Of a stretch of DNA of 64,000 bases, positions 596 through 64,000 are shown in pieces. Below the pieces are notes generated by a model. The model saw nothing but the letters and a program-made list of their open reading frames with translations. It had not been told where the DNA came from and searched no databases. This DNA is from an uncultured Bacteroidales bacterium. Its GTDB lineage: Bacteria > Bacteroidota > Bacteroidia > Bacteroidales > VadinHA17. Where the stretch lies: contig CAVOKP010000017.1 of the NCBI GenBank assembly GCA_963696535.1, forward strand, positions 20,440 to 84,439. The letters are read 5' to 3'. How positions within the stretch are numbered: position 1 is the stretch's first letter; the number at the start of each line of letters is the position of its first letter. Position numbers and translations under genes: made by a program.

Positions 596-2017
596 ATGCG
601 ACCACAATTCAAATATACCGATCTGAGAAACAAGCAGTTTAGGGGAGTTGACGTTCATTCTTCAGGTGATTTCAGGGATCCATGGATAACACCTGAGAAT
701 ATAGAGGTAAGGAACATATATTCAAAAGATGATCTTGAAGGAATGGAGCATCTCGATTATGCTGCAGGAATACCGCCGTTTCTGAGGGGACCTTATTCGG
801 TTATGTATGTCATGCAGCCCTGGACAATAAGACAATATGCAGGGTTTTCGACAGCAGAGGAGTCGAATGCCTTTTACAGGAGAAATCTTGCGGGCGGACA
901 GAAGGGCCTTTCGGTTGCCTTCGATCTCCCTACCCACCGCGGATATGATTCCGATCATAAGCGTGTTGCCGGCGATGTGGGAAAAGCCGGTGTGGCTGTC
1001 GATTCAATCCTCGATATGAAGATCCTGTTCGACAGCATTCCACTTAACAGGATGTCGGTTTCGATGACAATGAACGGAGCCGTTCTTCCCATTATGGCCT
1101 TTTACATTGTTGCTGCCATTGAACAGGGAGCAAAACCGGAAGAGCTTTCAGGTACCATCCAGAATGATATCCTCAAGGAATTCATGGTAAGGAACACTTA
1201 TATCTATCCGCCTGAATTCTCCATGCGAATTACGGCTGATATATTCAGATACACTTCAGCCAGGATGCCAAAGTTCAATTCCATCAGCATTTCAGGATAT
1301 CATATGCAGGAAGCCGGAGCAACCTGCGATATTGAACTTGCCTATACACTTGCCGACGGACTTGAGTATCTGAGGGCAGGTGTAAATGCAGGGCTCGATA
1401 TCGATGATTTTGCGCCCAGGCTATCCTTTTTCTGGGGAATCGGCATGAACCATTTCATGGAGATAGCAAAAATGAGGGCGGCAAGGATGCTGTGGGCAAA
1501 GATCGTAAGCGGGTTCAATCCCAAAAACCCAAAATCGCTCGCCCTGAGAACCCATTGCCAGACTTCGGGATGGAGCCTTACCGAACAGGACCCCTACAAC
1601 AATATCGGCAGGACAGCAATAGAAGCAATGGCTGCAGCCCTGGGACATACACAGAGCCTTCATACAAATGCCCTGGATGAGGCACTTGCCCTTCCGACTG
1701 ATTTCTCGGCACGGATAGCAAGAAACACCCAGATATATCTTCAGGAAGAGACAAATATCTGCAAATCGGTCGATCCGTGGGCAGGTTCATATTATGTTGA
1801 AACCCTTACAAATGAAATGGCCCACAGGGCATGGGACCTTATTGAGGAGATCGAAAACCTTGGAGGAATGGCTAAGGCAATTGAATCGGGCGTTCCGAAA
1901 ATGAGGATAGAAGAGGCAGCTGCAAGGGCACAGGCCAGAATCGACTCAGGTTTGCAGACAATTGTCGGGACCAACAAATACAGGCTTGATAAGGAGGATC
2001 CGATGGAGACTTCTTGA
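596..2017 (+). CDS. mutB: methylmalonyl-CoA mutase large subunit, catalytic TIM-barrel portion, ended by an in-frame TGA in the inter-domain linker
   Basis: 473 aa with typical MCM strings ([57 protein letters not shown]). It ends at ...[14 protein letters not shown]. Confidence 0.9.
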
Positions 2018-2032
2018 GGTGGATAACACTCA

Positions 2033-2740
2033 GTGAGGGATTCCCAGATAAAAAGGCTCGAAAAGCTCAGGGCCGGAAGGAATGAAAAGGAATGTACGGA
2101 GGCTCTGGAGGCGATTACAAAATGTGTTGATACGGGGGAAGGCAATCTTCTTGAACTGGCGGTTGATGCTGCGGCAAAAAGGGCCACTCTTGGAGAAATA
2201 TCTTATGCATGTGAAAAAATAGTCGGGAGGTACAAAGCAGTGATACGAACAATTTCAGGAGCTTATTCATCAGAATATAAGTCAGACAATGAGTTTGAGG
2301 AAGCCAGGGCCATGGCGCAAAGATTTGCTGAAAAGGAGGGCCGGCAGCCCAGGATAATGATCGCCAAGATCGGCCAGGATGGCCATGACCGGGGGGCAAA
2401 AGTCGTTTCAACCGGATATGCCGACATAGGTTTTGATGTTGATATCGGACCGTTGTTCCAGACCCCGGCCGAAGCAGCAAAACAGGCGGTCGAGAATGAT
2501 GTCCATGTTCTCGGGGTGTCGAGCCTTGCTGCGGGCCATAAAACCCTTATCCCGCAGGTGATGGATGAACTGCGGAAGCTTGGGAGGGAGGATATACTTG
2601 TTATTGCAGGTGGTGTTATCCCTCCGCAGGATTACAATTTCCTCTATGATGCCGGTGTGGCAGCAATTTTCGGACCCGGAACATCAGTTGCAAAGGCTGC
2701 GCGACAGATCCTTGAGATACTCCTTAATGCATTTGAGTAA
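2033..2740 (+). CDS. mutB: methylmalonyl-CoA mutase large subunit, C-terminal cobalamin-binding domain; a GTG-initiated ORF in the same frame as 596..2017
   Basis: Carries the DxHxxG cobalamin-ligand motif (GQDGHDRGAK) and GVSSLAAGH, plus a linker typical of full-length MutB (RDSQIKRLEKLRA). Confidence 0.85.
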   Translation: MRDSQIKRLEKLRAGRNEKECTEALEAITKCVDTGEGNLLELAVDAAAKRATLGEISYACEKIVGRYKAVIRTISGAYSSEYKSDNEFEEARAMAQRFAEKEGRQPRIMIAKIGQDGHDRGAKVVSTGYADIGFDVDIGPLFQTPAEAAKQAVENDVHVLGVSSLAAGHKTLIPQVMDELRKLGREDILVIAGGVIPPQDYNFLYDAGVAAIFGPGTSVAKAARQILEILLNAFE

Positions 2741-25956: not shown

Positions 25957-27312
25957 TTATCCTGAAAAACGCTGGAAAATCATTTCAATGCGTGTTCCTT
26001 CATTGATTTTACTCCTGATCTTCATTTCTGCTTTATGCAATTCCATTATTCTTGAAGCAAGTGAAAGTCCTATGCCAAATCCGCCAATGAACTTTACGTT
26101 TGATGCCCTGGAAAATGGTCTGTATATCGTTTCCAGTTCATCGGCCGGTATTCCTACACCACTGTCTGAGATAATGACATTTATTGTTTTATCTGCGATT
26201 TCAAACTCTACGGTTATATCATCATTTGAAAACTTGCATGCATTATCCAGCAGATTCTGGAATGCAATTGTCAGCAATCCTTCATCGCCATTAATAAGAA
26301 GGTCATCCTCACTTTCGGGATAAAGTATTTTTGGTACAATCCTTCGTCCCGGAAACTTTGACTTTACCTGGTAGACAGCATTGAAGATGATCTCGTCGAT
26401 CCTTACCCTTGAAAAATTTATGATCTTGTTTCCGTTAATCTGTGCCAGTTCCAGCAAATTGGTAAGGAGTGAATTGAGCTTTTTGAGATCCGTGTTTATT
26501 CCGGTAAGGTGGGTCAGGAATTCCTCTTTTTCCCTTTCATGGCTCAGCATATAGTCGCTTTCCCCGATCATTACCGTAAGAGGTGTCCGTAATTCGTGGG
26601 ATGCATTCGAAACAAAGTCTTCCTGGTTTCTGAATGCAATCTCAAGATCTGAAAGCATTTCATTGAATGTAATCGCCAGCTGGGCGATTTCATCCTTCTT
26701 ATCTCCTTCGTCAAGACGATTGCTAAGCTTCAGGGAATTTATTTCCTTGACACTCTTTATGATCTGCGAAATAGGTCTGATAGCTCTTTTGGCAAAGAAA
26801 TAGGAAAAGAGTACCGACAGCCATATACTGAAAAGGTTGCTCCAGAACAGAATATTGCGGAGTTCCGATAAATTTTCCATGCGGGATTTATCGATTGCCA
26901 TTGCAAAGGAATAATATGACCTGTCGCCGTATTTATGTCTGTAGCAGACGCCGTCCTTATCTGAAATTGAAAAAAAATTCACATCATCATTTGCATTATT
27001 TATTAAAGTTGTGCTGTCTGAAAGGAATTCAATATTATTCCCATAGATCAGGTTAAAGGCAGAATCAGTCAGCACAAGTTCCTCGCTTTCCCATGATATT
27101 GTTGATTGCTGAATCTTCTTAAGCAATAAAGAATCGATCTCGGTGACATCAATCAGAAGGATTGCGGTGTTTTTTGCACTGTCGAGTAGGTTTTGCCTGA
27201 ACTTTGCCAGCTGGCTTGAATATGAAAAATAATAAACCAGTGCAGAAAAAAACAATAATATGCCGGTCACAATCAGAGTAAATTGCAGCGCTAATCTTAT
27301 TTTAATGTTCAT
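25957..27312 (-). CDS. sensor histidine kinase (two TM helices, HAMP, HisKA, HATPase)
   Basis: H-box SHELRTPL, N-box LLDNACKF, and G-boxes DSGVGI and GGFGIGL. Confidence 0.9.
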   Translation of the reverse strand: MNIKIRLALQFTLIVTGILLFFSALVYYFSYSSQLAKFRQNLLDSAKNTAILLIDVTEIDSLLLKKIQQSTISWESEELVLTDSAFNLIYGNNIEFLSDSTTLINNANDDVNFFSISDKDGVCYRHKYGDRSYYSFAMAIDKSRMENLSELRNILFWSNLFSIWLSVLFSYFFAKRAIRPISQIIKSVKEINSLKLSNRLDEGDKKDEIAQLAITFNEMLSDLEIAFRNQEDFVSNASHELRTPLTVMIGESDYMLSHEREKEEFLTHLTGINTDLKKLNSLLTNLLELAQINGNKIINFSRVRIDEIIFNAVYQVKSKFPGRRIVPKILYPESEDDLLINGDEGLLTIAFQNLLDNACKFSNDDITVEFEIADKTINVIISDSGVGIPADELETIYRPFSRASNVKFIGGFGIGLSLASRIMELHKAEMKIRSKINEGTRIEMIFQRFSG

Positions 27313-27315
27313 CGG

Positions 27316-28008
27316 TTATATTTCTTTATCACTGCAATAGAATCCAAAACCAAATTTTGTGTGAATCAGTTTAGGCTTGAAATCCCTGTCAATCTTCTTC
27401 CTCAAATAGTTTACATAAACGTCAATAATGTTTGTATTTGGATCAAAATCAATTCCCCAGACCTGTTCAATAATAAATTCGCGGGAAAGCAGTTTATCAC
27501 GGTTCCTTAAAAAGGTTTCGAGCAGGAGGGATTCCTTTGCTGTCAGATCAATCTTTTTGCCTGCCCGTATTACTGTTTTGGTCTTTAGATCCAGCTCAAG
27601 ATCAGCCATCTTTAATTTTTCAGGAACCGTGACGTCAGAGTCGGATCTTCTGAGGAATACATTCACCCGGGCCAGTAATTCGCGGTAATCGAAAGGCTTT
27701 ACAACATAATCATCAGCACCGACATCAAAACCCGCAATCTTGTTTTCCGGAGTGCCAAATGCCGTAAGCATGATAATCGGGATTTTATTATTCATCTTCC
27801 TGATCTCTCTGCATAAATCATAGCCATTTATTAATGGCAGGTTAATGTCGAGGATAATAAGATTATACTTGTTTTTCTCAACCAGTTGCCGCCCAGTATA
27901 TCCATCAGAAGCTATTTCAGCGGTGAAACCCGATTCTTCAAGCTGCTTTTTAAGAATCTCTGCCAGCCGCCGTTCATCCTCAACTATTAGTATGTTAATG
28001 TTTCCCAT
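27316..28008 (-). CDS. OmpR/PhoB-family response regulator
   Basis: Receiver domain (ILIVEDE...LIILDINLP...MLTA) plus a winged-helix output domain (LTAKESLLLETFLRN...VWG...NIIDVYVNYLRKK). Confidence 0.9.
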   Translation of the reverse strand: MGNINILIVEDERRLAEILKKQLEESGFTAEIASDGYTGRQLVEKNKYNLIILDINLPLINGYDLCREIRKMNNKIPIIMLTAFGTPENKIAGFDVGADDYVVKPFDYRELLARVNVFLRRSDSDVTVPEKLKMADLELDLKTKTVIRAGKKIDLTAKESLLLETFLRNRDKLLSREFIIEQVWGIDFDPNTNIIDVYVNYLRKKIDRDFKPKLIHTKFGFGFYCSDKEI

Positions 28009-28080
28009 TCGGATGATAACTTTTGTGCAAATTTATATAATGAAAGATATGCAATAAATGATTAAGGAGTTTCTAACCAT

Positions 28081-28128
28081 CTTCTAATGATATTTTAATT
28101 ATTGATTATTCATAACCTGATAATTTTG
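28081..28128 (+). promoter_or_regulatory. 26-nt conserved box (two TTnTAATnAT direct repeats) plus a -7 box TAATTTTG, upstream of the lipoprotein gene
   Basis: cttctaatgatattttaattattgat lies exactly 40 nt before taattttg. The same arrangement recurs at 28774-28821. Confidence 0.55.
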
Positions 28129-28251
28129 CTGGATTATCAGGAAAATGAACAGATTAGATTGGGGAAGACCAAAAGTGCTAGCAGGAGAAGTGAATTGTCT
28201 TATAAACAAAGTTACCTTATTTTTGTTTAATCTTTATAACACTATGAAAAA

Positions 28252-28644
28252 ATGAGACATATAATTATTTTGGCTGCAATGCTTTTTTTGTCTTCTTGTG
28301 CTTCTACGGAAAAATTTCCCGTCTCGACGGTTGCTCCGGCAGCTGATATAACTGCCGTAAAAAAATTGGACAAGAACAACAACTATACCATTGATGTGAC
28401 TGCAAAGAATCTGGCCAGCGTCGACAGAATAGATCCTTTAAAAAAGACATATGTCGTGTGGATAGTGACGAAAAATGAAGGTATTAAAAATATTGGGCAG
28501 CTAAGCGTTAAAAATGCTAAAACTTCTTCGTTAAAGTCTCTTACCCCCTTTGATTTCAATGAAGTCTTTATAACGGCCGAAGAGCAGGGAGATATCACAT
28601 ATCCTTCTGGTACTGAGGTCTCACGTGTATTAATAAGAAAGTAA
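28252..28644 (+). CDS. small lipoprotein of unknown function
   Basis: Lipobox LFLSSCAS; 130 aa; divergent from the two-component system. Confidence 0.6.
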   Translation: MRHIIILAAMLFLSSCASTEKFPVSTVAPAADITAVKKLDKNNNYTIDVTAKNLASVDRIDPLKKTYVVWIVTKNEGIKNIGQLSVKNAKTSSLKSLTPFDFNEVFITAEEQGDITYPSGTEVSRVLIRK

Positions 28645-28773
28645 TATCGGCATTTTCATTTACAACCCCTGTTTATCCATCCTCCACCTGAACTGACCTC
28701 ATTCTGATTCAGAGTTCCTGCGGCGGCAATCTTCCCAGTATGCCGGAAGATTCTCTAAAGAATTTTTAATGAC

Positions 28774-28821
28774 CTTCTAATGATATTCTAATTATTGATC
28801 TGGCATACATCCATAATTTTG
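28774..28821 (+). promoter_or_regulatory. second copy of the 26-nt box plus -7 box
   Basis: cttctaatgatattctaattattgat matches the first box at 25 of 26 positions, with the identical 40-nt offset to taattttg. Confidence 0.55.
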
Positions 28822-28840
28822 CAGAATCATACTTTAAGTA

Positions 28841-28954
28841 ATGATCAGAATAATGAAACTGCCAAAATTGTCAAATGGATTCAAGGTATTTTTATTCTGG
28901 CTGGCAATATTTATTTTTTTGGCAGTACTTAAGATATTTGTTTTCCCTGGTTAA
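28841..28954 (+). CDS. putative 37-aa hydrophobic peptide
   Basis: MIRIMKLPKLSNGFKVFLFWLAIFIFLAVLKIFVFPG starts about 20 nt after the second -7 box and is followed by a terminator-like hairpin. It is below the ORF-track length cutoff. Confidence 0.3.
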   Translation: MIRIMKLPKLSNGFKVFLFWLAIFIFLAVLKIFVFPG

Positions 28955-29015
28955 GTAAAATTTTAATCACAAGGAAGATGTCAGGTTTTTGCTTTGTTGA
29001 TTATTTGGGTTTCTT

Positions 29016-29056
29016 AAAAAGCAGTTGTTTTAATAAATATCGACAACTGCTTTTTT
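29016..29056 (+). terminator. terminator-like hairpin
   Basis: aaaaagcagttgt ... acaactgcttttt with a trailing T run. Confidence 0.55.
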
Positions 29057-29148
29057 AACTGACATCAGGCCAAAATCAGTAATGCAAATACGTAGAACCC
29101 TTTTATCACAACGTTAATTAAAAGAGTTTCAATAATAAAAAGGACTAA

Positions 29149-29250
29149 ATGAGCATAATACTTGGTATCCTGGCTTTTTTGACAGTAGTTATGATTGCTG
29201 TCATTATACTGATCGGTGAATGGGTGAAAAGACGAAAATCGCTTAAATAG
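29149..29250 (+). CDS. putative 33-aa single-helix membrane peptide just upstream of nhaA
   Basis: MSIILGILAFLTVVMIAVIILIGEWVKRRKSLK ends 14 nt before the nhaA start. Confidence 0.3.
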   Translation: MSIILGILAFLTVVMIAVIILIGEWVKRRKSLK

Positions 29251-29264
29251 ACGGTGATGACCGG

Positions 29265-30410
29265 ATGAGACTTACAGCACTTTACAAAGAGTTTTTTAAC
29301 AGCGAAAAGGCCGGAGGATTAGTCCTGATAATGATGACAATCCTTTCACTCCTCATTGCAAACTCCCCCTGGCAAAGTATTTATAATGATTTCTGGAATC
29401 TTGAATTCGGTGGTTACAGTATAGTTCATTGGGTTGATGATGGTCTTATGACCTTTTTTTTCCTGCTGATCGGACTGGAACTGGAGCGGGAGATCTATCA
29501 GGGGGAGCTTTCAAGCTTTAAAAACGCGTCTTTACCAATATTTGGAGCACTCGGAGGCATGGCAGTTCCTGCCGGAATATATTTGCTATTTAATTTTGGC
29601 ACAAGCTTTCAATCAGGGGCAGGCATCCCTATGGCAACTGACATTGCTTTTGCTTTGGCAGTTTTATCACTTTTAGGAAACCGCGTTTCAGCTTCCTTGA
29701 AAATCTTCTTAACCGCATTGGCTGTGATTGACGATTTAGGTGCGATGTTAATTATTGCAGTTTTCTACACAACCACCTTGAATTTCACAAATATTATAAT
29801 CGCTTTATTAATTTTTTGTCTTCTTTTGTTAATCAACAGACTAAAGGTTTATAACCTGATCCCTTATTTAATTGGTGGTGCCGTGATGTGGTACTTTACT
29901 TCAATTTCGGGAATCCATCCGACAATAACAGGCTTACTTATCGCTTTCACAATACCATTCAGAGACGGAAGCGAAAATTCGCCATCCTATGTCTTACAGC
30001 ATTTCTTGCATAAGCCGGTTGCCTTCATAGTTCTACCGTTATTTGCCCTGGCTAATACCTGTATTACGATTGATGACAGACTGATTCAGGGATTAAGTCA
30101 GAACTATAGCCTGGGAATCATGGCCGGACTGGTAATAGGAAAACCCCTGGGAATCCTTCTCTTTTCTATAATCGGAACAAGCATCGGACTTTGTGCATTA
30201 CCTTCCGATCTTAACTGGAAGAGCATTGCTGGGGTTGGTTTCCTTGGAGGAATCGGATTTACAATGTCAATATTTATAGGAATCCTTGCATTTGATATTC
30301 CTTCGGTGATCAATACTTCAAAAATCGCAGTCTTTATCAGCTCATTTGTTGCCGGGACCATTGGCTTTATTCTGTTGAAACTGACACTTAAAACTCCTAA
30401 TGCTGATTAA
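29265..30410 (+). CDS. nhaA: Na+/H+ antiporter NhaA
   Basis: NhaA strings WVDDGLMTFFFLLIGLELEREI, ATDIAFALAVL and ALAVIDDLGAM. Confidence 0.9.
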   Translation: MRLTALYKEFFNSEKAGGLVLIMMTILSLLIANSPWQSIYNDFWNLEFGGYSIVHWVDDGLMTFFFLLIGLELEREIYQGELSSFKNASLPIFGALGGMAVPAGIYLLFNFGTSFQSGAGIPMATDIAFALAVLSLLGNRVSASLKIFLTALAVIDDLGAMLIIAVFYTTTLNFTNIIIALLIFCLLLLINRLKVYNLIPYLIGGAVMWYFTSISGIHPTITGLLIAFTIPFRDGSENSPSYVLQHFLHKPVAFIVLPLFALANTCITIDDRLIQGLSQNYSLGIMAGLVIGKPLGILLFSIIGTSIGLCALPSDLNWKSIAGVGFLGGIGFTMSIFIGILAFDIPSVINTSKIAVFISSFVAGTIGFILLKLTLKTPNAD

Positions 30411-41734: not shown

Positions 41735-41750
41735 ATTCTTTTCTTTCTCA

Positions 41751-41841
41751 GTGGACCTCTGTGTCTTCTCTGTGGATCTCTGTGCAACCGGGTATTATAT
41801 AGAACTAACACAGAGGACACAGAGAAGGCACAGAGATCCAC
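41751..41841. repeat. word-palindrome hairpin (CTCTGTG / CACAGAG words)
   Basis: gtggacctctgtgtcttctctgtggatctctgtgc, a 22-nt loop, then acacagaggacacagagaaggcacagagatccac. Confidence 0.8.
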
Positions 41842-41866
41842 GGAGATTCAGTATCTGCATTTCATT

Positions 41867-52988: not shown

Positions 52989-53335
52989 ATGATATCAAAT
53001 CAACTTTACAGCGGGTCGCTCAAGACAATAGTTCTTAAACTGTTAAAAGAAGAGGGTCCTATGCATGGATATGCAATAACAAATAAGGTGGAAGAACTGA
53101 CAAAGGGTAAGATCACTCTTACTTACGGTGCTCTTTATCCGATACTTCACAAGCTTGAAAGCGAGAAAGTTCTTGTCACGACAAGTGAAGTATTACAATA
53201 ACAGGGTAAGGATCTACTATGCGCTTACTCCTTCGGGACAAGCAGTTGTTGCTGAAAAGAATAAATGAGCTTAAAGAATTTATTGAATCGCTTCAGCTTA
53301 TAATTGAACCCAAAGCCGGACTAAATTATGCCTGA
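52989..53335 (+). pseudogene. PadR-family transcriptional regulator interrupted by two frameshifts
   Basis: The winged helix is LKLLKEEGPMHGYAITNKVEELTKGKITLTYGALYPILHKLESEKVL. The continuation YYNNRVRIYYALTPSGQAVVAEKNK and then INELKEFIESLQLIIEPKAGLNYA* lie in two other frames. The stop overlaps the next gene by 8 nt. Confidence 0.7.
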
Positions 53336-54764
53336 ACTTTCGATCCAGAATATTGAAAGGATTTCCCGCGATGTAAGAAAACAGGAGATAGTATTCTCTC
53401 ATCTTCTGGATGAGCTGATCGACCATATCTGCTGCGATGTCGAAAATGAAATGCAGGACGGGCTTACCTTCCTTGAAGCCTACAGTAAAGTAAGGCATAA
53501 AATAGGTTCGCGGCGAATTAAAGAGATACAGGAAGAGACACTTTATGCAGTCGACACTAAATACAGACATATGAAAAACACGATGAAAATTTCAGGCATT
53601 GCCGGTACAGTTTTGCTTGGCTTTGGAGCCTTATTCAAGATCCAGCACTGGCCTCTTGCCGGTGTTATGACGACCCTCGGGGCTGTAACCCTGGCATTGG
53701 TATTCATGCCCTCGGCACTCGGAGTACTCTGGAAAGAGACTCACAGCAGGAAGAAACTCTTCCTTTTCGTCTCGGCATTTCTGGCAGGGATGTGTTTTAT
53801 ACTTGGTACATTGTTCAAGATACAGCACTGGAATGGTGCAGGATTGATTCTCCTTCTTGCAGGATTCTTTGGATTGTTTTTCTTTGTGCCTGCATTACTT
53901 GTACAGAAACTTCAGGATCAGGATAATAAAGCCAAAAAGCCGGTTTATATACTGGCTGCTGCTGGAGCGATCTGTTATGGTGCAGGGATGTTATTTAAAA
54001 TCCAGCACTGGCCGGGCGCAGCGGTCCTAATGGTCTTTGGACTTGTAATTCTCTGCCTGATAGCTTTACCTTGGTACACACGGATCAGCTGGAAGGAGGA
54101 GGGTCATATAACTTCAAAATTCCTTTATATAATTATAGGCCTGCTTCTGATCCTTCTGCCCGGATCACTGATCAACATGAACCTTTCGCAATCTTTTGAA
54201 GAGGGTTTTTATTCACATCAGGATCAGCAAAAGGCTCTGTACAGCTATTTACACCGAAATACCAGTTCCATGATGATCCGTTACCACGATTCACTTAACT
54301 ACCCTGTAATGGAACTGATTCACGAAAGAACCAAAGAGCTGGTTAATTATATCGGGGGTATTGAATCTGAAATGATTAGTGTGGCAGAAGGGGAGCCGGG
54401 AGCACCTGTTATTCTCAGCAATGAGATCATTCAGTCTGAAACAGGACCAGCTATAAATTTTCATGAAATTTCAAGACCGTTTCATACCCAGCCTGTAAAA
54501 GACTTTCTTCTGCCTGGCGCCAGGGCAAGGGAGGAGCTTAATGCACTTCTGACTGATTATAAAGCATTTATTTTAGGATTGATGTCCGGTGAAGAGCTGA
54601 GAAGTATTTCAGGACTTCTTGATCTATCACTTTATTTACCGGATGAGCTGCCTGAGACCAGTAATATTTCAATGATGTCGGGGCTCCATTCGCTTGTGCT
54701 GCTGAAAAACGGGCTTCTGACCGTTGAGTCCGACGCATTGAAAGCTATTGCAAGCCACAACTAA
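53328..54764 (+). CDS. PadR-associated membrane protein: cytoplasmic prefix, three 60-aa GldL/PorL-like two-helix modules, a GldM/PorM-like anchor helix, and a ~190-aa extracytoplasmic domain
   Basis: LFKIQHW(P/N)GA occurs at residues 102, 162 and 222, an exact 60-aa period. The last helix is followed by LINMNLSQSF (compare GldM ALNVSKEV). Confidence 0.75.
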   Translation: MPELSIQNIERISRDVRKQEIVFSHLLDELIDHICCDVENEMQDGLTFLEAYSKVRHKIGSRRIKEIQEETLYAVDTKYRHMKNTMKISGIAGTVLLGFGALFKIQHWPLAGVMTTLGAVTLALVFMPSALGVLWKETHSRKKLFLFVSAFLAGMCFILGTLFKIQHWNGAGLILLLAGFFGLFFFVPALLVQKLQDQDNKAKKPVYILAAAGAICYGAGMLFKIQHWPGAAVLMVFGLVILCLIALPWYTRISWKEEGHITSKFLYIIIGLLLILLPGSLINMNLSQSFEEGFYSHQDQQKALYSYLHRNTSSMMIRYHDSLNYPVMELIHERTKELVNYIGGIESEMISVAEGEPGAPVILSNEIIQSETGPAINFHEISRPFHTQPVKDFLLPGARAREELNALLTDYKAFILGLMSGEELRSISGLLDLSLYLPDELPETSNISMMSGLHSLVLLKNGLLTVESDALKAIASHN

Positions 54765-54783
54765 TCAATTAATACACAAAGTC

Positions 54784-55749
54784 ATGAAGCAAAAGATTTA
54801 TATATTCGGTGTGGTTACTGCCATAATAATTTTTACAGGCACTCTGTTTAAATTAAACCACTGGCCTGGCGCAGGTTATCTGTTGATAATAGGTATTGCA
54901 ACGCTTGTTCTGGGCTTTCTGCCCCTGGCACTTAGAGACCATTACAAGGCAAGCGGAACCAGGCAAAACTTACTGCTGCATATTGTTACCTGGCTCACAT
55001 GCTTTGTAGTATTCACATCGATGCTGTTCAAGATTCAGCATTGGCCTTATGCTGGCATCCTGTTGACAATAGCAATTCCTTTCCCGTATGTTGTTTTTCT
55101 TCCTGTTTTTATTTCAACGATGTCAAAGAACAAGAATTTCAATATTTACAATACAGTATTTGTTCTTATGTTGCTTGCTGCCAGTTCAGTTCTGTCGGCC
55201 TTGCTTGCTTTAAATGTATCAGCGGAAAGGATCAGGGACAGCTATAACCTTTCAAGGCAGTACAATCAGGTTGGAAAGGTCCTCAACCAGCTCCCTGCAT
55301 ATGACTCAGAATCCGGGATTGCCCTGAAGATTGATGAAGTCCTAAAGGTTGCGGAGGATTATAAGAACCTGATACTTAAGTTTGAAGGTATCTCTCCCGG
55401 ACAATATACTTACGCGGGAGATTTACTGAGACCCGATTTACGGGGTGCAGCGCTGCAGGGATTATCTTCTACCGGTAATGCAAAACTTGCGGAAAAACTA
55501 GACAACAGCCTGAAGGATCTCATTAAGGAAATTGAAAATACTCCGGGATGTGATGACCTGACAAAAGCAATCCCGGTAATTCTTGATCTTAACCCGCAGG
55601 ATGGAGATGAGCCTTTATTGATTTGGTCTAATATTACTAATACCCTTTCGTGGACCCTTATTTATCTCGACGGTCTTGAGACCAACCTGAAAATGATAAA
55701 GGCAACGGCTGTGGGACCCAGAGATGCCGCCCCTCACGGGGCTTTCTAG
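54784..55749 (+). CDS. paralogous membrane protein: two GldL/PorL-like modules, a GldM/PorM-like anchor, and an extracytoplasmic domain
   Basis: LFKLNHWPGA at residue 21 and LFKIQHWPYA at residue 81 (60-aa period), then LLALNVSAERI. The start is set at ATG 54784. The last ~8 codons are read from a hairpin repeat. Confidence 0.75.
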   Translation: MKQKIYIFGVVTAIIIFTGTLFKLNHWPGAGYLLIIGIATLVLGFLPLALRDHYKASGTRQNLLLHIVTWLTCFVVFTSMLFKIQHWPYAGILLTIAIPFPYVVFLPVFISTMSKNKNFNIYNTVFVLMLLAASSVLSALLALNVSAERIRDSYNLSRQYNQVGKVLNQLPAYDSESGIALKIDEVLKVAEDYKNLILKFEGISPGQYTYAGDLLRPDLRGAALQGLSSTGNAKLAEKLDNSLKDLIKEIENTPGCDDLTKAIPVILDLNPQDGDEPLLIWSNITNTLSWTLIYLDGLETNLKMIKATAVGPRDAAPHGAF

Positions 55750-55919: not shown

Positions 55920-56206
55920 GCAATAAGCAAATTGCACTACACAGGAATTATTTTCATCATAAAGAATCTCCTTTCTGTCGGTAAAACCTCCCGGTACTTC
56001 TATTAGATTTTTTATCCTCTTCATGGGTACCCTACTTTTATGCCAAAATCCGGTTGTTCATTGTGAACCTTGAGAAAATTGATACTATCGAAAGAATCAG
56101 GATAGTTTTCGGGAAAACCTATATACCGGTGAGCGAGCAGTTCAAAGAGAAGTTTCAGGAATTTCTCGATAAGAATTTCTTATGATACACCAAGAAATTC
56201 AGTTAA

Positions 56207-56289
56207 CCACGGAGTCGCACGGAGTAAAGACGGAGTTTCACTGTTTTAACACCGTGTTTTACTCAGTGCAACTCTGTGTGACTCCGTGG
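56207..56289. repeat. word-palindrome hairpin (CACGGAG words) downstream of the GH97 gene
   Basis: ccacggagtcgcacggagtaaagacggagtttcac ... gtgcaactctgtgtgactccgtgg. The terminal 10 bp pair perfectly. Confidence 0.75.
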
Positions 56290-56298
56290 TAAATTGAT

Positions 56299-58209
56299 TT
56301 AGTCCACCGGTTTTAAGTGCATTGCAATCCCGTTATTCGGCGCAAGATTTAGCGAATGAAGTGTCTTACTGTTTATTATTGTACTGTCAATTCTGACATG
56401 TGTCCGGGTGTTGACCGACGGATCATCTGAATAGATTTTTGCAGAATATTCCTTATCCGGATCCAAAAAAGCGAAGTTAAGATCAAGCATTATGGAATTG
56501 GCTCCGTTAATACCGCCGATAAACCATTCATCACCCTTTTTCCTTGCTATTACCCCATATTCCCCGATTTTTGCATGCAATACCTTTGTTTCATCCCATA
56601 CAGTAGGAACATTGTCGAAGAATTCAAGTTCCGGTTCATCACCAATATAGTTTGTTGCGCCCCACAAGCCGTCATTTTTTTCAAGCGCAGGAGCTGCCTT
56701 ATCGTACCAGTAAAGAAACTGAAGGGGACTGAAAATGCATACAGCTTTTGCCAGCTGGGAGGCATGTGATCCCATTTTTTTATCGACCCTTTCATTATAA
56801 TAACAGATTGTATTGTCTCCCTGTCCGGCAATCATCCGCGTGAACATCGTTATCAGGGTGTGACTGTTTGAAGGGCTCTCTTCATCGCCGCGAATGCCTT
56901 CCATTGTGAGTAAATTCGGATACGTTCTCGAGAATCCGGTTGGTCGGTATTCGTCATGCACGTCAACAACCAATTGATATGCAGCAGCTTTCTTTATCGA
57001 TTCATGAAGCCACCTGGTCACATCCTGGTTTCCGACCATTACAAATCCGAATTTTATCCCGGCAATTCCCCATTTGCTGTAGATCGGAAGCAGTTCGTCG
57101 ATCTGTTTCTCAAGGGCTCTCCTGTTGACATAAAGAATAATGTCAATATTCTTTGACTTTGCATATCGTGTGACCTCCTCCATGTCAAGAGGCCCTTTGG
57201 ACCGGGCAGGATCGAGGTTCACCGCCCTGGCATCGGAAAGATCATTGTTCTCAGGTCCGTACCATCCGGCATCAAACTCGACATACTGCATATTATGAGA
57301 TGATGTAAAATCGATTGCTGCCTTTGCTCCTGTTGTTGTAAGAGTCACTTCACGAAGTACCTTTCCGGGTTTTATCCAGGACACGTCATCAATTTTGCAT
57401 GGATCATTGAGGTTAAGAATTAAATAATTCTTTTCGAGAAGATCCCCCGGATCTTTTCCGGTCATTACCACTCTCCAGGGTGATTGGAATGGAAGTGACT
57501 TATGTACAGGACCTTCCAGGTATGTAATTACATTGTAATTACGTAGTGAATCAGGGTTAAATTTCATCCTGGCATAATCGACAAGCTTTGCTTCGGTAAG
57601 AGCAATGATAAGATTTGTATCAATCTCAATAACGAGAGGTCTTTCACAACCTTTTTCAATCTGGCTGAGAGGGACTCTTGAGTATTGTGCCTGGGCTCTT
57701 GCGGCAGACCAGGCATAATGATCAGAAGGGAAATTGAAGGTAATTTTTTCTCCGGTTATTATTACAGAATCCATACCATCCTGTTCGGGAATTTCATATG
57801 CAAATGCAATTCCTTCATTATATGCGCGGCAGATAACGTTTATCTTTATTTCCTCATTTTCAAGAAGGATCTTTATCTCGTTGTATTTGTCAGGAATTTC
57901 CCTCCTTTCTCCAAAGGAATTGATCCAGGTTTTATCATAAGATATTGATTCAGTTCCGATAATTTTAAGACTCTTCTTCAGGGGATTCTCTTTCAAATCT
58001 ATTTCGAGAGATGACGGAAGGAGTACCTTTTTCTCTCCAACCTCCAGGTAAAAGCTGGCAATATGCTGAGACATGTCGCCTGGTTCAATTGAAAAAACGA
58101 GTTTATTACTGCCATCCGGAGAAATAACATCAACAATTTTATTCGATGAACAACTCATATTTAATAATATGCCTGATATCAGTAATAAAACTGCTGTTTT
58201 CCTTTTCAT
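56299..58209 (-). CDS. glycoside hydrolase family 97 (SusB-like alpha-glucosidase/galactosidase)
   Basis: 636 aa with a lipoprotein-like start, then the GH97 N-terminal, catalytic and C-terminal layout (GIAGIKFGFV, NLLTMEGIRGDE). Confidence 0.85.
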   Translation of the reverse strand: MKRKTAVLLLISGILLNMSCSSNKIVDVISPDGSNKLVFSIEPGDMSQHIASFYLEVGEKKVLLPSSLEIDLKENPLKKSLKIIGTESISYDKTWINSFGERREIPDKYNEIKILLENEEIKINVICRAYNEGIAFAYEIPEQDGMDSVIITGEKITFNFPSDHYAWSAARAQAQYSRVPLSQIEKGCERPLVIEIDTNLIIALTEAKLVDYARMKFNPDSLRNYNVITYLEGPVHKSLPFQSPWRVVMTGKDPGDLLEKNYLILNLNDPCKIDDVSWIKPGKVLREVTLTTTGAKAAIDFTSSHNMQYVEFDAGWYGPENNDLSDARAVNLDPARSKGPLDMEEVTRYAKSKNIDIILYVNRRALEKQIDELLPIYSKWGIAGIKFGFVMVGNQDVTRWLHESIKKAAAYQLVVDVHDEYRPTGFSRTYPNLLTMEGIRGDEESPSNSHTLITMFTRMIAGQGDNTICYYNERVDKKMGSHASQLAKAVCIFSPLQFLYWYDKAAPALEKNDGLWGATNYIGDEPELEFFDNVPTVWDETKVLHAKIGEYGVIARKKGDEWFIGGINGANSIMLDLNFAFLDPDKEYSAKIYSDDPSVNTRTHVRIDSTIINSKTLHSLNLAPNNGIAMHLKPVD

Positions 58210-59350: not shown

Positions 59351-60683
59351 ATGAAAAAAAGATTGAAAAAGAGTATGGTGATCCTGATTTTATTGTTTAT
59401 GAGTATTACAGGATTGATTGCTTCAGACGGAACTGAGATTGACACCGGAGCGACAGCCTGGATGCTGACATCAACGGCTTTGGTTTTACTTATGATCCCC
59501 GGGCTGGCAATGTTTTACGGCGGACTTGTACGTTCAAAGAATGTGCTTGGCACTGTGATGCATAGTTTTGTTGCAATGGGTATAATAACTGTATTGTGGA
59601 TTATTGTCGGATACAGCATGTGTTTCGGGACAAAACACCCTTGGAGGATTTTTTGGATGGAACACCGATTATTTTTTCCTTAAGGGGATTGATACTAATA
59701 TCCTGGAAGCAAAAGTCCCGGAATATGTCTTCTCCATGTTCCAGCTCAAGTTTGCAATTATTACGCCGGCATTGATAGCCGGAGCTTTTGCGGAGAGGGT
59801 TAATTTTAAGGCATATTGCTTCTTCATTGCATTATGGAGTCTTCTGGTTTATAATCCGCTTTGCCATTGGGTATGGGCAGCAGATGGGTTTCTTTTTAAC
59901 CTTGGTGCAAAAGGGGCAATCGATTTTGCCGGAGGAACAGTCGTTCACATTTCTGCCGGGGTAAGCGGACTTGTTGCTGCATTATTCCTTGGATCGCGCA
60001 GGGGGTACCCTTACCAGGTAATAAGGCCGAATAACCTTGTGATCACAATGCTTGGTGCAGGATTGCTATGGGTGGGATGGTTCGGGTTCAATGCCGGAAG
60101 TTCCGTATCAAGCGGACTAAGCACCGCTCAGGCATTAACCGCAACCCAGGTTGCCGCAGCTGCCGGAGCCCTGACATGGATAATAATCGAAAGTTTCCAT
60201 CAGGGAAAAGCAACTGCCCTCGGATTTGCCAGCGGAATACTTGCTGGTCTGGTAGCCGTTACCCCTGCTGCCGGCGTGGTTCAACCCTATGGAGCAATGA
60301 TCCTCGGAATTCTGGCTTCATCAGTATGCTATATGGCCATTCAAGCTAAAAACAGACTGGGTTATGACGATAGTCTCGACGCATTTGGGATTCATGGCGT
60401 CGGAGGTATTACAGGAGCACTTTTCCTTACATTCTTTATCCGTCCCTCATGGATGGCGGAAGCCGCAGCTGCAAACGGAGGCTCATGGTCAGTCTGGAAC
60501 CAGCTTGGCGTTCAGGCCATTGCCGTTGGAATTGCAATAGCTTTTTCAGCAGGAATGACATTCATGATAATCTTTTTACTGAATAAGTTCATAAGGTTTA
60601 AATCGACAGAAGATGACGAAATGGCCGGTCTCGACAGATCGTATCACGGGGAAAGGGGATACGGAATGCTGAATCCCAGCTGA
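59351..60683 (+). pseudogene. amt: ammonium transporter (Amt family) with a +1 frameshift near 59625
   Basis: ORF 59351..59683 ends with ...IVGYSMCFG, and ORF 59604..60683 continues QNTLGGFFGWNTDYFFLKGI...AFGIHGVGGI. Removing one G from the ggg run restores GYSMCFGQNTLGG. Confidence 0.85.
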
Positions 60684-61059: not shown

Positions 61060-61081
61060 ATCGCGAATTTTTTGTGAAAAT

Positions 61082-61131
61082 AGGGACATGCCATGGCATG
61101 TCCCTTTGGATGGACATGCCATGGCATGTAC
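61082..61131. repeat. two tandem copies of a palindrome with core ACATGCCATGGCATGT
   Basis: agggacatgccatggcatgtccct (61082-61105, perfect 24-mer) and ggacatgccatggcatgtac (61112-61131), between convergent glnK and hcp. Confidence 0.8.
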
Positions 61132-61134
61132 TTA

Positions 61135-62788
61135 TTAATTCAGGAACAATTTAATATCATCCTCAACGGTTCCGATACCGGCAATTCCGAATTTTTCTAT
61201 AAGCACCTTTGCAACATTCGGTGATAGGAATCCGGGAAGGGTCGGTCCCAGGTGGATGTTCTTAATCCCAAGATAAAGAAGCGCAAGCAGATACAATAAC
61301 AGCTTTCTGCTCATACCATGCAATATTGAAAACTATCGGAAGGTCGTTTATGTCTTTCAGATTGAATACCTCTTTCAGCTTAAGAGCAATCACTGCAAGG
61401 GAGTATGAATCGTTGCACTGACCGGCATCGAGGACTCTCGGGATGCCATTGATATCACCAAGCTGAAGCTTGTTGTAGCGGTATTTGGCACATCCTGCCG
61501 TAAGAATTACAGTGTCTTTCGGAAGGGCCTGTGCGAATTCGGTGTAGTAATTGCGGTCCTTAAAGCGGCCATCGCAGCCTGCCATCACAAAGAATTTCTT
61601 AATAGCGCCCGATTTCACTGCATCAACAACCTTATCGGCAAGTGCAATAACCTGGTTATGAGCAAAACCGCCAATAATCTCTCCTTTCTCAATTTCAACG
61701 GGAGGTTTGCATTTTTTTGCATGTTCGATAATTACGGAAAAATCCTTCCGTCCGCCTGCGGGCCTGTCGGCAATATGCCTGAATCCTGCGAATCCTGCAG
61801 CGCCTGTGGTGTAAACTTTATCAAAATATGAAGCATCCTTTTTCGGCGGGACAATGCAGTTTGTTGTAAACAGCACCGGTCCGTTGAAGGTTTCAAACTC
61901 CTCCTTCTGCCTCCACCATGAACTTCCGTAGTTACCCACAAAATGAGTGTACTTTTTGAAGGCAGGATAGTAGTTGGCAGGAAGCATCTCGCTGTGGGTA
62001 TAAACATCAACTCCTGTTCCCTCTGTTTGTTTCAGCAGGTCTTCCATATCCCTCAGGTCGTGTCCGCTGATGAGGATACCCGGATTCTTTCCGACTCCGA
62101 TGTTTACTTTTGTTATTTCAGGATTGCCATATCTGGTTGTATTCGCTTTATCAAGAAGTGCCATTGCAGCAACACCGAATTTTCCGGTCTCAAGTACAAG
62201 GGAAGTCAGCTGATCGGCCCCCAGAGAGTCATCAGTGGTGGCTACCAGCGCATCCTGGATAAACTTGTAAATCGATTTGTCTTCAAATCCAAGATTGTAT
62301 GCATGTTCGGTATATGCAGCCATTCCTTTCACTCCATAGATCACAAGCTCCCTTAATGATCTTATATCTTCATTTCTGGTTGAAAGCACCCCGACCGATA
62401 TGTTCTTTGATTCGAATTCCTCAACAGTGCTGCCTGTCCAGGTTGCTGATTCATGAACAGCATCAGGAACATTTCCGCCTGCCTTGATTAATGATGTCTT
62501 AAGCTCATCCCTGAGCTTAAGTGCTTCCCTCACCCTTACAACAAATCTTTCCTTATCGAAGTTCGCATTGGTGATAGTCATGAAAAGAGAGTCGACAACG
62601 AACTTGTTTGCTGCATCATTTTCGATTCCGAGCTCCCTGAGCCTTGTTGTGTAAAATGAAATTCCCTTTGAAACAAAAACAAGAAGGTCCTGCATATTTG
62701 CAACCTCCCCGGTTTTCCCGCAAACCCCGGCAATTGTGCACCCGGTTCCTTTTGCGGTCTCCTGACACTGAAAACAAAACATACTCAT
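61135..62788 (-). pseudogene. hcp: hydroxylamine reductase / hybrid cluster protein with a frameshift near 61290-61320
   Basis: N-terminal [21 protein letters not shown] 61262..62788 ends ...[10 protein letters not shown] then nonsense. ORF 61135..61323 supplies the conserved tail [30 protein letters not shown]. Confidence 0.85.
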
Positions 62789-62905
62789 ATTAAATTATAT
62801 TTATTGGTTTAAATTATTTTCCGATTGTAATATATCCTTCCTAAGTACCGGTAAGACTTCCTGCCTTAAAGTTCAGCAAAAGAACCAAAATTACCTTACG
62901 GGAAT

Positions 62906-62921
62906 TGTAACATATGTTACA
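62906..62921. promoter_or_regulatory. 16-bp perfect palindrome TGTAAC-ATAT-GTTACA upstream of hcp, a Crp/Fnr(HcpR)-type site candidate
   Basis: It lies 118-133 nt upstream of the hcp ATG. A minus-strand -7 box TAATTTTG (62886-62893) follows it in the hcp direction. Confidence 0.45.
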
Positions 62922-62962
62922 TTTATAGGGTTTTTGAGAAATAATTATTATTTTTCTGACCG

Positions 62963-63592
62963 ATGAATATCACATTCGAAAACATACTTCTTATTGGCTC
63001 GGTCCTATTGGGAATAAGCGTTCTGGTCGGCAAGACATCTTTCCGTCTGGGTGTTCCCACACTGATTCTGTTTGTCATAGTAGGGATGCTGGCTGGATCG
63101 GAGGGTTTCGGTGGGATCAATTTCAGCGATCCGGGTATTGCACGTTTTATTGGAATAGTAGCCCTGAATGTGATACTATTCTCGGGAGGCCTTGAAACGC
63201 GATGGGAGGTTGTAAAGCCTGTTTTCTGGCATGGGCTGACACTTTCGACGGTGGGAGTATTTCTGACAGCTGTTTCGGTCGGTGTTTTTGTGTGGGCTAT
63301 CACCGATTTCACATTTTTTGAAGGATTGCTTCTTGGATCGATTGTATCATCGACCGATGCTGCCGCCGTCTTTTCAATACTCAGGGCAAGAAGCCTGGGA
63401 CTTAAAAAGAATATCCGGGCGACACTTGAGCTTGAGAGCGGAAGCAACGATCCCATGGCCTATTTCCTGACGGTTGCCATAATGGGTCTTATATTATCGG
63501 GGGAGCAGTCGGCCCTGACAATCATTCCCTTATTCATTAAGCAGATGTTGATAGGCGTGGCAATAGGGTTGATTACCGGTAAGCTCGGGAAA
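62963..63592 (+). pseudogene. CPA1-family K+(Na+)/H+ antiporter (NhaP/CvrA-like), N-terminal ~210 codons only
   Basis: LGVPTLILFVIVGMLAGSEG, LFSGGLE and SSTDAAAVFSIL look typical. Recognisable sequence stops after ...GLITGKLGK, where the composition changes. Confidence 0.75.
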
Positions 63593-64000
63593 GAAGCCGC
63601 AACCGCGATCAGCGCAGCCCGGTGTTGTGGCCGCAGGGGCGGAAGATGGCGGCACTGTCAGGCCAAACCATCCGCCTTTGCGCTTCTCCTTGAAGCACGC
63701 CCGCATCTACACCTTCGCAGCTGAAGTGGCACAGGATTAAGTTATTCCGGTGCCTCCGGTAAAGAGGTTCGCGGCAAACCACATACCGAGTATCGACACT
63801 AAAGTCCGCTCGCTTGACAAGCGCCACACTTTGGCGCGTATTGTCACACCGTGACAGTCACAACGTGTTCTGTCTGGTGAATGATCGGGGGGGCCATGCA
63901 AACGATTGCCCCCTAGCATCAAGGCGATCCGGACAAAACTCGGCGTGAGCCAAGTTTCGTCCGGATCGCCCTGATGCTAGGGGGCAATGGGTTGCATGGC
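63593..64000. other. GC-rich segment of foreign character (chimeric join or edge of an acquired element), continuing beyond the window
   Basis: The composition switches visibly; 26 of the last 40 nt are G/C. No convincing ORF is present, and no Bacteroidota-type signals are seen. Confidence 0.7.
63893..64000. repeat. 108-nt hairpin: 48-nt arms with 44 complementary positions, a 3-bp apical stem and a GTGA loop
   Basis: gccatgcaaacgattgccccctagcatcaaggcgatccggacaaaact / cggcGTGAgcca / agtttcgtccggatcgccctgatgctagggggcaatgggttgcatggc. It is cut by the window edge. Confidence 0.85.

Follow-up and report, generated by a model that had tools for sequence, protein, structure and literature searches.

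At one end of a stretch of Bacteroidota DNA, a gene for a K+/H+ antiporter breaks off in the middle of its reading frame and gives way, within a few bases, to GC-rich DNA. The question raised by this locus is whether the break exists in the chromosome of the organism or was made during assembly. The stretch analysed here, referred to below as the window, comprises 64,000 nucleotides, and the DNA after the break (the tail) occupies its last 408 nucleotides. An earlier note on the window had left two explanations standing, a chimera of assembly or contamination and the boundary of a horizontally acquired element lying mostly beyond position 64000. In this study, we report the delimitation of the break, a search for the nature and origin of the tail, and an evaluation of the explanations. 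The feature is real in the sequence and most probably without biological novelty; it represents an artefact, or else the boundary of an ordinary insertion, the body of which is out of view.

The truncated antiporter gene and its surroundings

The last ORF of the window (62963..63724, plus strand, 253 aa) matched thousands of K+/H+ antiporters in a collection of 5.8 billion proteins. The window's own protein aside, the best matches showed 88% (P0002), 82% (P0003) and 78% identity over the first 83-86% of the query. Residues 19-208 matched the Pfam family Na_H_Exchanger (PF00999, E=3.7e-24) at profile positions 3-194 of 375, and the membrane domain of this family is therefore not complete in the window. 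Judged by its N-terminal half, which is the only part of the sequence at hand, the host gene belongs to the NhaP2/CvrA family of K+/H+ antiporters. Alignment revealed that it tracks the family through ...GLITGKLGKE and then diverges entirely, at a point where full-length relatives read (L/V)INxIxLD(F/Y)xGLYPVL... and continue for ~280 further residues. The N-terminal half was delimited by Pfam and by protein and DNA alignments to 211 codons at 62963..63595 (plus strand), intact through GKLGKE. It is undecayed, being free of frameshifts and retaining all the family-invariant residues.

The end points of tblastn alignments with three full-length homologues were 63592, 63595 and 63613, and those of DNA alignments with the loci of three relatives fell at 63583-63594. 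Searching the whole 64-kb window with full-length homologues by tblastn did not locate the C-terminal half of the antiporter anywhere, and the C-terminal TrkA_C domain, present in the relatives L005 and L006, is absent with it. The truncation described in the earlier note was thus borne out by the partial Pfam match, by the loss of similarity to homologues after GKLGKE and by the absence of the missing half from the window; moreover, no homologue was found to align through 63593-63724. The note had also placed a sharp break at 63592, of which the sharpness stood and the exact place did not, as similarity ends at 63592-63595, 1-3 nt later. Two proteins with 92% query coverage (P0008 and P0024) were considered as homologues spanning the junction and were rejected, both being independent truncations with unrelated tails, and P0008 an internal deletion.

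Broken copies of the same gene were also encountered in relatives. An orthologue with an internal deletion is present at L002 10001-10829 (GCA_964558465.1) and at L003 1979-2807 (Logan assembly, SRR15237804). In these two independent assemblies, the deletion fuses approximately residue 222 straight to the C-terminal TrkA_C tail (…MIKRGEKYITPNGSSMIEPHDVLMVLSD…), and the antiporter is thus dispensable in at least one other lineage. In P0024 (L004), the antiporter is broken at residue 218. That three independent breaks fall within 11 residues is probably due to chance. The relatives with retrievable context lie on ENA contigs named contig_N, in which the antiporter genes are also split by frameshifts.

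The gene content of the window is Bacteroidota-like and includes SusC/SusD, GldL, GH97, DnaE and other typical genes. Two adjacent ORFs of 478 and 333 aa, each with a GldL_N domain, form a tandem pair at 53328-55749 that looks like gliding-motility / T9SS GldL-like genes.

Four fresh indels were identified across three otherwise perfectly conserved genes, methylmalonyl-CoA mutase, amt and hcp, corresponding to a density of about one per 16 kb. The gene for the methylmalonyl-CoA mutase large subunit (596-2740) is split into ORFs 596..2017 and 2033..2740, which share the same frame, with the break at 2006-2039. Here, in-frame stops occur at 2015 (TGA) and 2024 (TAA), while the 27 nt in between give the correct peptide, LLEVDNTQ, when read in a different frame, and this arrangement suggests a +1/-1 indel pair ~27 nt apart. 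In amt (59351-60683), the frame shifts near 59624-59636, and Ammonium_transp positions 1-70 and 62-399 are found in two overlapping ORFs; glnK (P-II), downstream of amt, is intact. In hcp (Prismane family, 61135-62788, minus strand), the shift lies near 61282-61297, with the last 62 codons in another frame and Pfam positions 1-468 and 458-513 divided between the two frames; it looks like one extra T in GTA-T-CTG. Since the parts downstream of the shifts are without further decay, the lesions in all three genes look like consensus error and not like old pseudogenes. A clustering of frameshifts towards the end of the window alone was considered and proved false, the mutase error pair being located at 2.0 kb. 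The fresh indels in three genes, taken together with the placement of relatives on contig_N (Flye-style) contigs, point to a modest-coverage long-read metagenome assembly as the source of the sequence.

The sequence beyond the junction

The GC content of 63593-64000 is 58.6%, the maximum of all 408-nt segments in the 64 kb (mean 44.4%, sd 4.2%). About 1 in 10,000 such segments reaches a GC of 0.586, and every one of them overlaps 63593-64000. At the junction itself, GC rises by 14 points within a few bases. Native intergenic DNA is AT-rich, for example 30% GC at 62800-62999. The tetranucleotide distance of 63593-64000 from the rest of the window exceeds the mean by 4.2 sd and ranks within the top 0.3%. 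Accordingly, the switch from AT-rich to GC-rich DNA noticed earlier was confirmed as the highest GC in the window, and the tetranucleotide comparison, which the earlier note had proposed as a check, also marked the tail as an outlier. The most AT-rich stretch of the window, 26001-30000 (36-39% GC vs ~45%), harbours short ORFs and a pair of sensor/regulator-like genes; it may be an island, or else simply DNA rich in intergenic sequence.

On the basis of its composition, the stops in its six frames and the lack of any family or database match, the segment 63596..64000 was classified as foreign, GC-rich and apparently non-coding DNA. Stop codons occur in all six frames of the last 408 nt, no 3-nt periodicity of GC by codon position was detected in the tail, and no Pfam family was found in 63596-64000; the earlier statement that no convincing gene is present therefore holds. 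A cmscan of both strands of 63300-64000 with permissive filters (E<=1) returned no Rfam family, the only matches being generic miRNA hairpins far below gathering scores. A tRNA, rRNA or other known RNA in the tail is excluded, and the 64-kb window as a whole contains no tRNA.

The earlier note had also pointed to a frame in the tail that read like the orphan C-terminal end of a protein, and had suggested that the junction cuts a foreign gene. An ORF of 37 codons ending ...AEVAQD* does exist at 63627..63740 (plus strand), in a +1 frame that is open from the junction. An exhaustive phmmer search of this 48-aa open frame against 1.84 billion representative proteins gave a single match, P0121, a repeat protein of 1657 aa, and this match was the sum of 10 weak matches to the repeat GGTVVPNNTPL. 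The open frame was thus confirmed, whereas the cutting of a foreign protein gene was not, as no genuine homologue was found among the 1.84 billion representatives, and the +1-frame peptide is probably not a gene.

Searches for the origin of the tail were negative throughout. The segment 63596-64000 was not similar to any other part of the window and had no match in the loci of the relatives. The 408 nt and the hairpin described below gave nothing significant by blastn (word 11) against plasmids, phages and E. coli genomes, and an open frame of 82 codons on the minus strand had no tblastn match in plasmids. In scans for exact 23-27-mers, the tail had no match among GTDB representative genomes, JGI metagenomes or IMG/VR; such scans require identity over the whole word and miss relatives below ~95% identity. 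Peptides running off the end of the window had no protein match. The concatenated open frames likewise had no match in the index of 5.8 billion proteins, which is a weak negative: the query held 43 residues identical to the window protein P0001, included as a control, and the word-indexed search did not return P0001. Because this control was not recovered, negatives obtained with that search for peptides of odd composition are untrustworthy.

The tail contains a long imperfect hairpin, absent from the earlier note, which is cut by the end of the window. Its arms (63893-63944 and 63949-64000) are at least 52 nt long, 90% complementary and separated by a 4-nt loop. The arms differ by five mismatches, all of them substitutions (three transitions and two transversions), with zero indels, and on the minus strand each of the three transitions turns into a G-U pair. 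Pairing is still perfect over the outermost 9 bp, where the window ends, and for this reason the hairpin may extend past 64000. The 297 nt of the tail without the hairpin fold moderately better than shuffled sequences (z = -2.7 on the plus strand and -2.0 on the minus strand). Two smaller features were read directly from the sequence. A look-alike of a sigma-70 promoter, TTGACA-N19-TATTGT, is present at 63814..63844 (plus strand) by consensus resemblance only, its spacer exceeding the range of the promoter scan, and is not of the Bacteroidota promoter type. Overlapping short palindromes, TGTCAC-ACC-GTGACA and GTGAC-A-GTCAC, occupy 63842..63861 and form small stems in the folds; their appearance might be called operator-like.

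Hairpins also occur in native intergenic DNA. Between glnK and hcp, a palindromic repeat at 61079-61136 consists of two copies of GGACATGCCATGGCATGTCC with 25-nt arms, forms a hairpin and also yields several short overlapping ORFs. Intergenic hairpins at 41746-41846 and 56196-56300 are built of CACAGAGA / CACGGAGT-type units with 29-30-nt arms, and these units may represent a REP-like repeat family of the genome. The possibility that the tail hairpin is a copy of the native REP-like hairpins was rejected, since the native ones are shorter and unrelated in sequence.

The first nucleotides after the break (63596..63634) were set apart as a transition zone, possibly containing scrambled antiporter remains or microhomology. 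Within it, two short stretches, CAACCG (63600-63605) and CCCGGTG-TTGTG (63618-63629), are collinear with the codons for INR and YPVLV in L001, the closest relative. Against L001, the local alignment scored above 99.5% of shuffles (p ~0.005) and above all 126 other foreign windows, in a comparison made post hoc, and the similarity was not significant against L006 or L005; it is weak, and may represent chance, microhomology or garbled consensus. The sole link between flank and tail is a 7-nt match, CCGGTAA, away from the junction. The first 40 nt of the tail do not recur in inverted form in the window, and a search with 7-nt seeds detected no repeated motif in 63596-63890. The second end of an inserted element, with any matching inverted repeat or target duplication, would lie beyond 64000.

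Origin of the junction

Our tentative preference, held at somewhat less than an even chance, is that the junction at ~63596 is an assembly chimera. In such an event, Bacteroidota chromosome would have been joined to unrelated, higher-GC, non-coding DNA by the assembler and not in the cell, probably by way of a chimeric long read, or of an overhang at the end of a contig, in a long-read metagenome assembly of modest coverage. The organism would then possess an intact antiporter gene, and the 408 nt would derive from another, GC-richer genome of the sample. Chimeric contigs in metagenome assemblies have been documented to arise from chimeric long reads (bioRxiv 10.1101/2025.09.05.674543). We infer the artefactual nature of the join from several lines of evidence: the four fresh indels in three genes make consensus error look likely, the truncated antiporter half is equally fresh, and the closest relatives with context lie on Flye-style contigs in which the antiporters are split too. 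The 14-point jump in GC, the foreign tetranucleotide usage and a promoter look-alike of another type than that of Bacteroidota are consistent with DNA of a different source. The marks of a mobile-element end, namely transposase-binding repeats, a second copy in the window, a tRNA, an intron, a HEARO element or another RNA family, were all lacking, and the 40 nt past the break resemble a garbled antiporter, as a mixed consensus at the join could produce. However, a fragment taken at random from a bacterial genome would more commonly be coding than consist of 400 nt of non-coding DNA. The hairpin arms, moreover, carry substitutions only, and because they are free of indels the tail appears to be a faithful copy of real DNA and not junk of raw-read quality. 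The contig is 87,083 bp long, and up to 23 kb may therefore lie past 64000; a long foreign run would need a stronger misassembly than an overhang.

The insertion of an element without terminal repeats in the middle of a gene would look identical in these 408 nt, and it is quite possible that the junction is a true one. It would then mark one end, left or right, of an element inside the antiporter gene, either mobile or acquired horizontally, with its body beyond 64000; an integrative element would be a candidate, as would an IS of a type that lacks terminal inverted repeats. Such an element would end in a long stretch of structured non-coding DNA. In IS110, IS200/IS605 and integrative elements, the ends do not code for protein and are structured. 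The present break is sharp and lies mid-gene, the foreign end is likewise non-coding and folds somewhat better than its shuffles even without the hairpin, and in the hairpin, at least 108 nt long, the transitions preserve G-U pairs on the minus strand. That the foreign part appears to be of good sequence quality, its hairpin arms being free of indels, and that the antiporter is dispensable in another lineage (L002, L003) also argue for a true insertion. On the other hand, no transposase, integrase or other element gene is in view, there are no repeated binding sites, and no ORF in 63596-64000 matched a Pfam family, a gene past 64000 being possible. No second copy exists in the 64 kb, and no relative turned up in GTDB, JGI, IMG/VR, plasmids, phages or E. 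coli, the scans of the first three being for exact matches. Mobile elements are usually AT-richer than their hosts, whereas the tail is 14 GC points richer than its host, and the 7-nt flank match gives no sign of guide-like complementarity. A more specific version, in which the tail would be the end of an undescribed Bacteroidota element that lacks terminal inverted repeats and bears a long, GC-rich, highly structured, non-coding leader, with a hairpin of over 100 nt in which G-U pairs are kept on the minus strand and possibly with a guide or bridge-type RNA for a recombinase past 64000, is considered very unlikely.

Two further explanations are less likely. An illegitimate recombination within the same genome, by deletion or rearrangement, might have joined the antiporter gene, at about its midpoint, to a remote non-coding region of atypical character; the possible microhomology or collinear remnants in 63596-63634, the internal deletion of the same gene in another lineage and the existence of native intergenic hairpins are in keeping with this. 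It is nevertheless unlikely, as the tail comprises the most GC-rich 408 nt in the window and is a tetranucleotide outlier, while native intergenic DNA is AT-rich (as at 62800-62999) and the native hairpins are shorter and of unrelated sequence. The least probable of all the readings is a fold-back artefact or a hairpin telomere, in which a palindrome centred at 63946/63947 would continue past 64000 by mirroring the sequence before it. Up to 64000 the right arm remains paired without a mismatch over 9 bp, from which it follows that the palindrome is cut by the window and not by its own end. Read-through of a duplex or of a closed hairpin would, however, give a perfect palindrome save for sequencing errors, indels included, and the arms are only 90% complementary, with two of the five differences being transversions; furthermore, a fold-back leaves the join at 63596 unexplained.

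Of the two alternatives drawn up in the earlier note, both survive all the tests run, while the foreign composition and the true truncation on which they were founded were substantiated. We lean only slightly to the assembly chimera over the element boundary, and the visible sequence cannot separate the two. If the junction is a chimera, it is a matter of quality control only: the contig should be split at ~63596, annotation of the antiporter as a pseudogene or as a 253-aa fusion protein should be avoided, and the tail is not to be taken as a case of horizontal transfer into Bacteroidota. A real join, in contrast, represents an ordinary disruption of a gene by an acquired element, unusual only in its high GC and its long structured non-coding end.

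Comparison with known systems

Several classes of element and RNA were compared with the tail individually. Tn7-like or Mu-like ends were rejected, since 63596-63890 contains no repeated transposase-binding sites (7-nt seed). A group I or group II intron was rejected as well, there being no Rfam match beyond generic hairpins and no GUGYG at the junction. An integron attC site does not account for the hairpin, the outer stem of which (ATGCAAAC ... GTTGCAT) misfits RYYYAAC ... GTTRRRY and has no bulged base. IS200/IS605 elements and the omega RNA of IscB/TnpB were likewise discarded: the large hairpin is not subterminal, with its start 297 nt away from the junction, and no HEARO match was obtained (E<=1). 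For an IS110 bridge RNA, a single 7-nt flank match (CCGGTAA) was found, not adjacent to the junction, and the recombinase would lie outside the window. As regards an integrative element with a tyrosine or serine recombinase, the window lacks a tRNA, and both the integrase and the second att site would be located past 64000.

In general terms, the IS110/IS1111 family (bridge RNA) and the IS200/IS605 family (subterminal hairpins and omega RNA) resemble the locus in having no inverted repeat at the junction, a long structured non-coding end and insertion within a gene. Unlike in those families, there is no recombinase in view in the window, no Rfam or HEARO match, no guide-like complementarity to the flank and no other copy in any of the collections searched. 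Integrative and conjugative or mobilizable elements of Bacteroidota of the CTnDOT/NBU type also integrate without terminal inverted repeats and deviate in composition, but they usually occupy tRNA genes or specific short targets and carry an integrase near one end, whereas the window has no tRNA and no integrase is in view. The internal-deletion pseudogene of L002 and L003 belongs to the same gene family and is broken within 11 residues of the same position; there, however, the TrkA_C tail follows directly after the break, as in a simple deletion, and foreign DNA is not involved. Chimeric contigs and contig overhangs made from long reads differ from the present case in that the foreign piece here is clean and non-coding, but they share with it the abrupt mid-gene switch in composition, the lack of a shared repeat, the indels nearby and the undecayed state of the interrupted gene.
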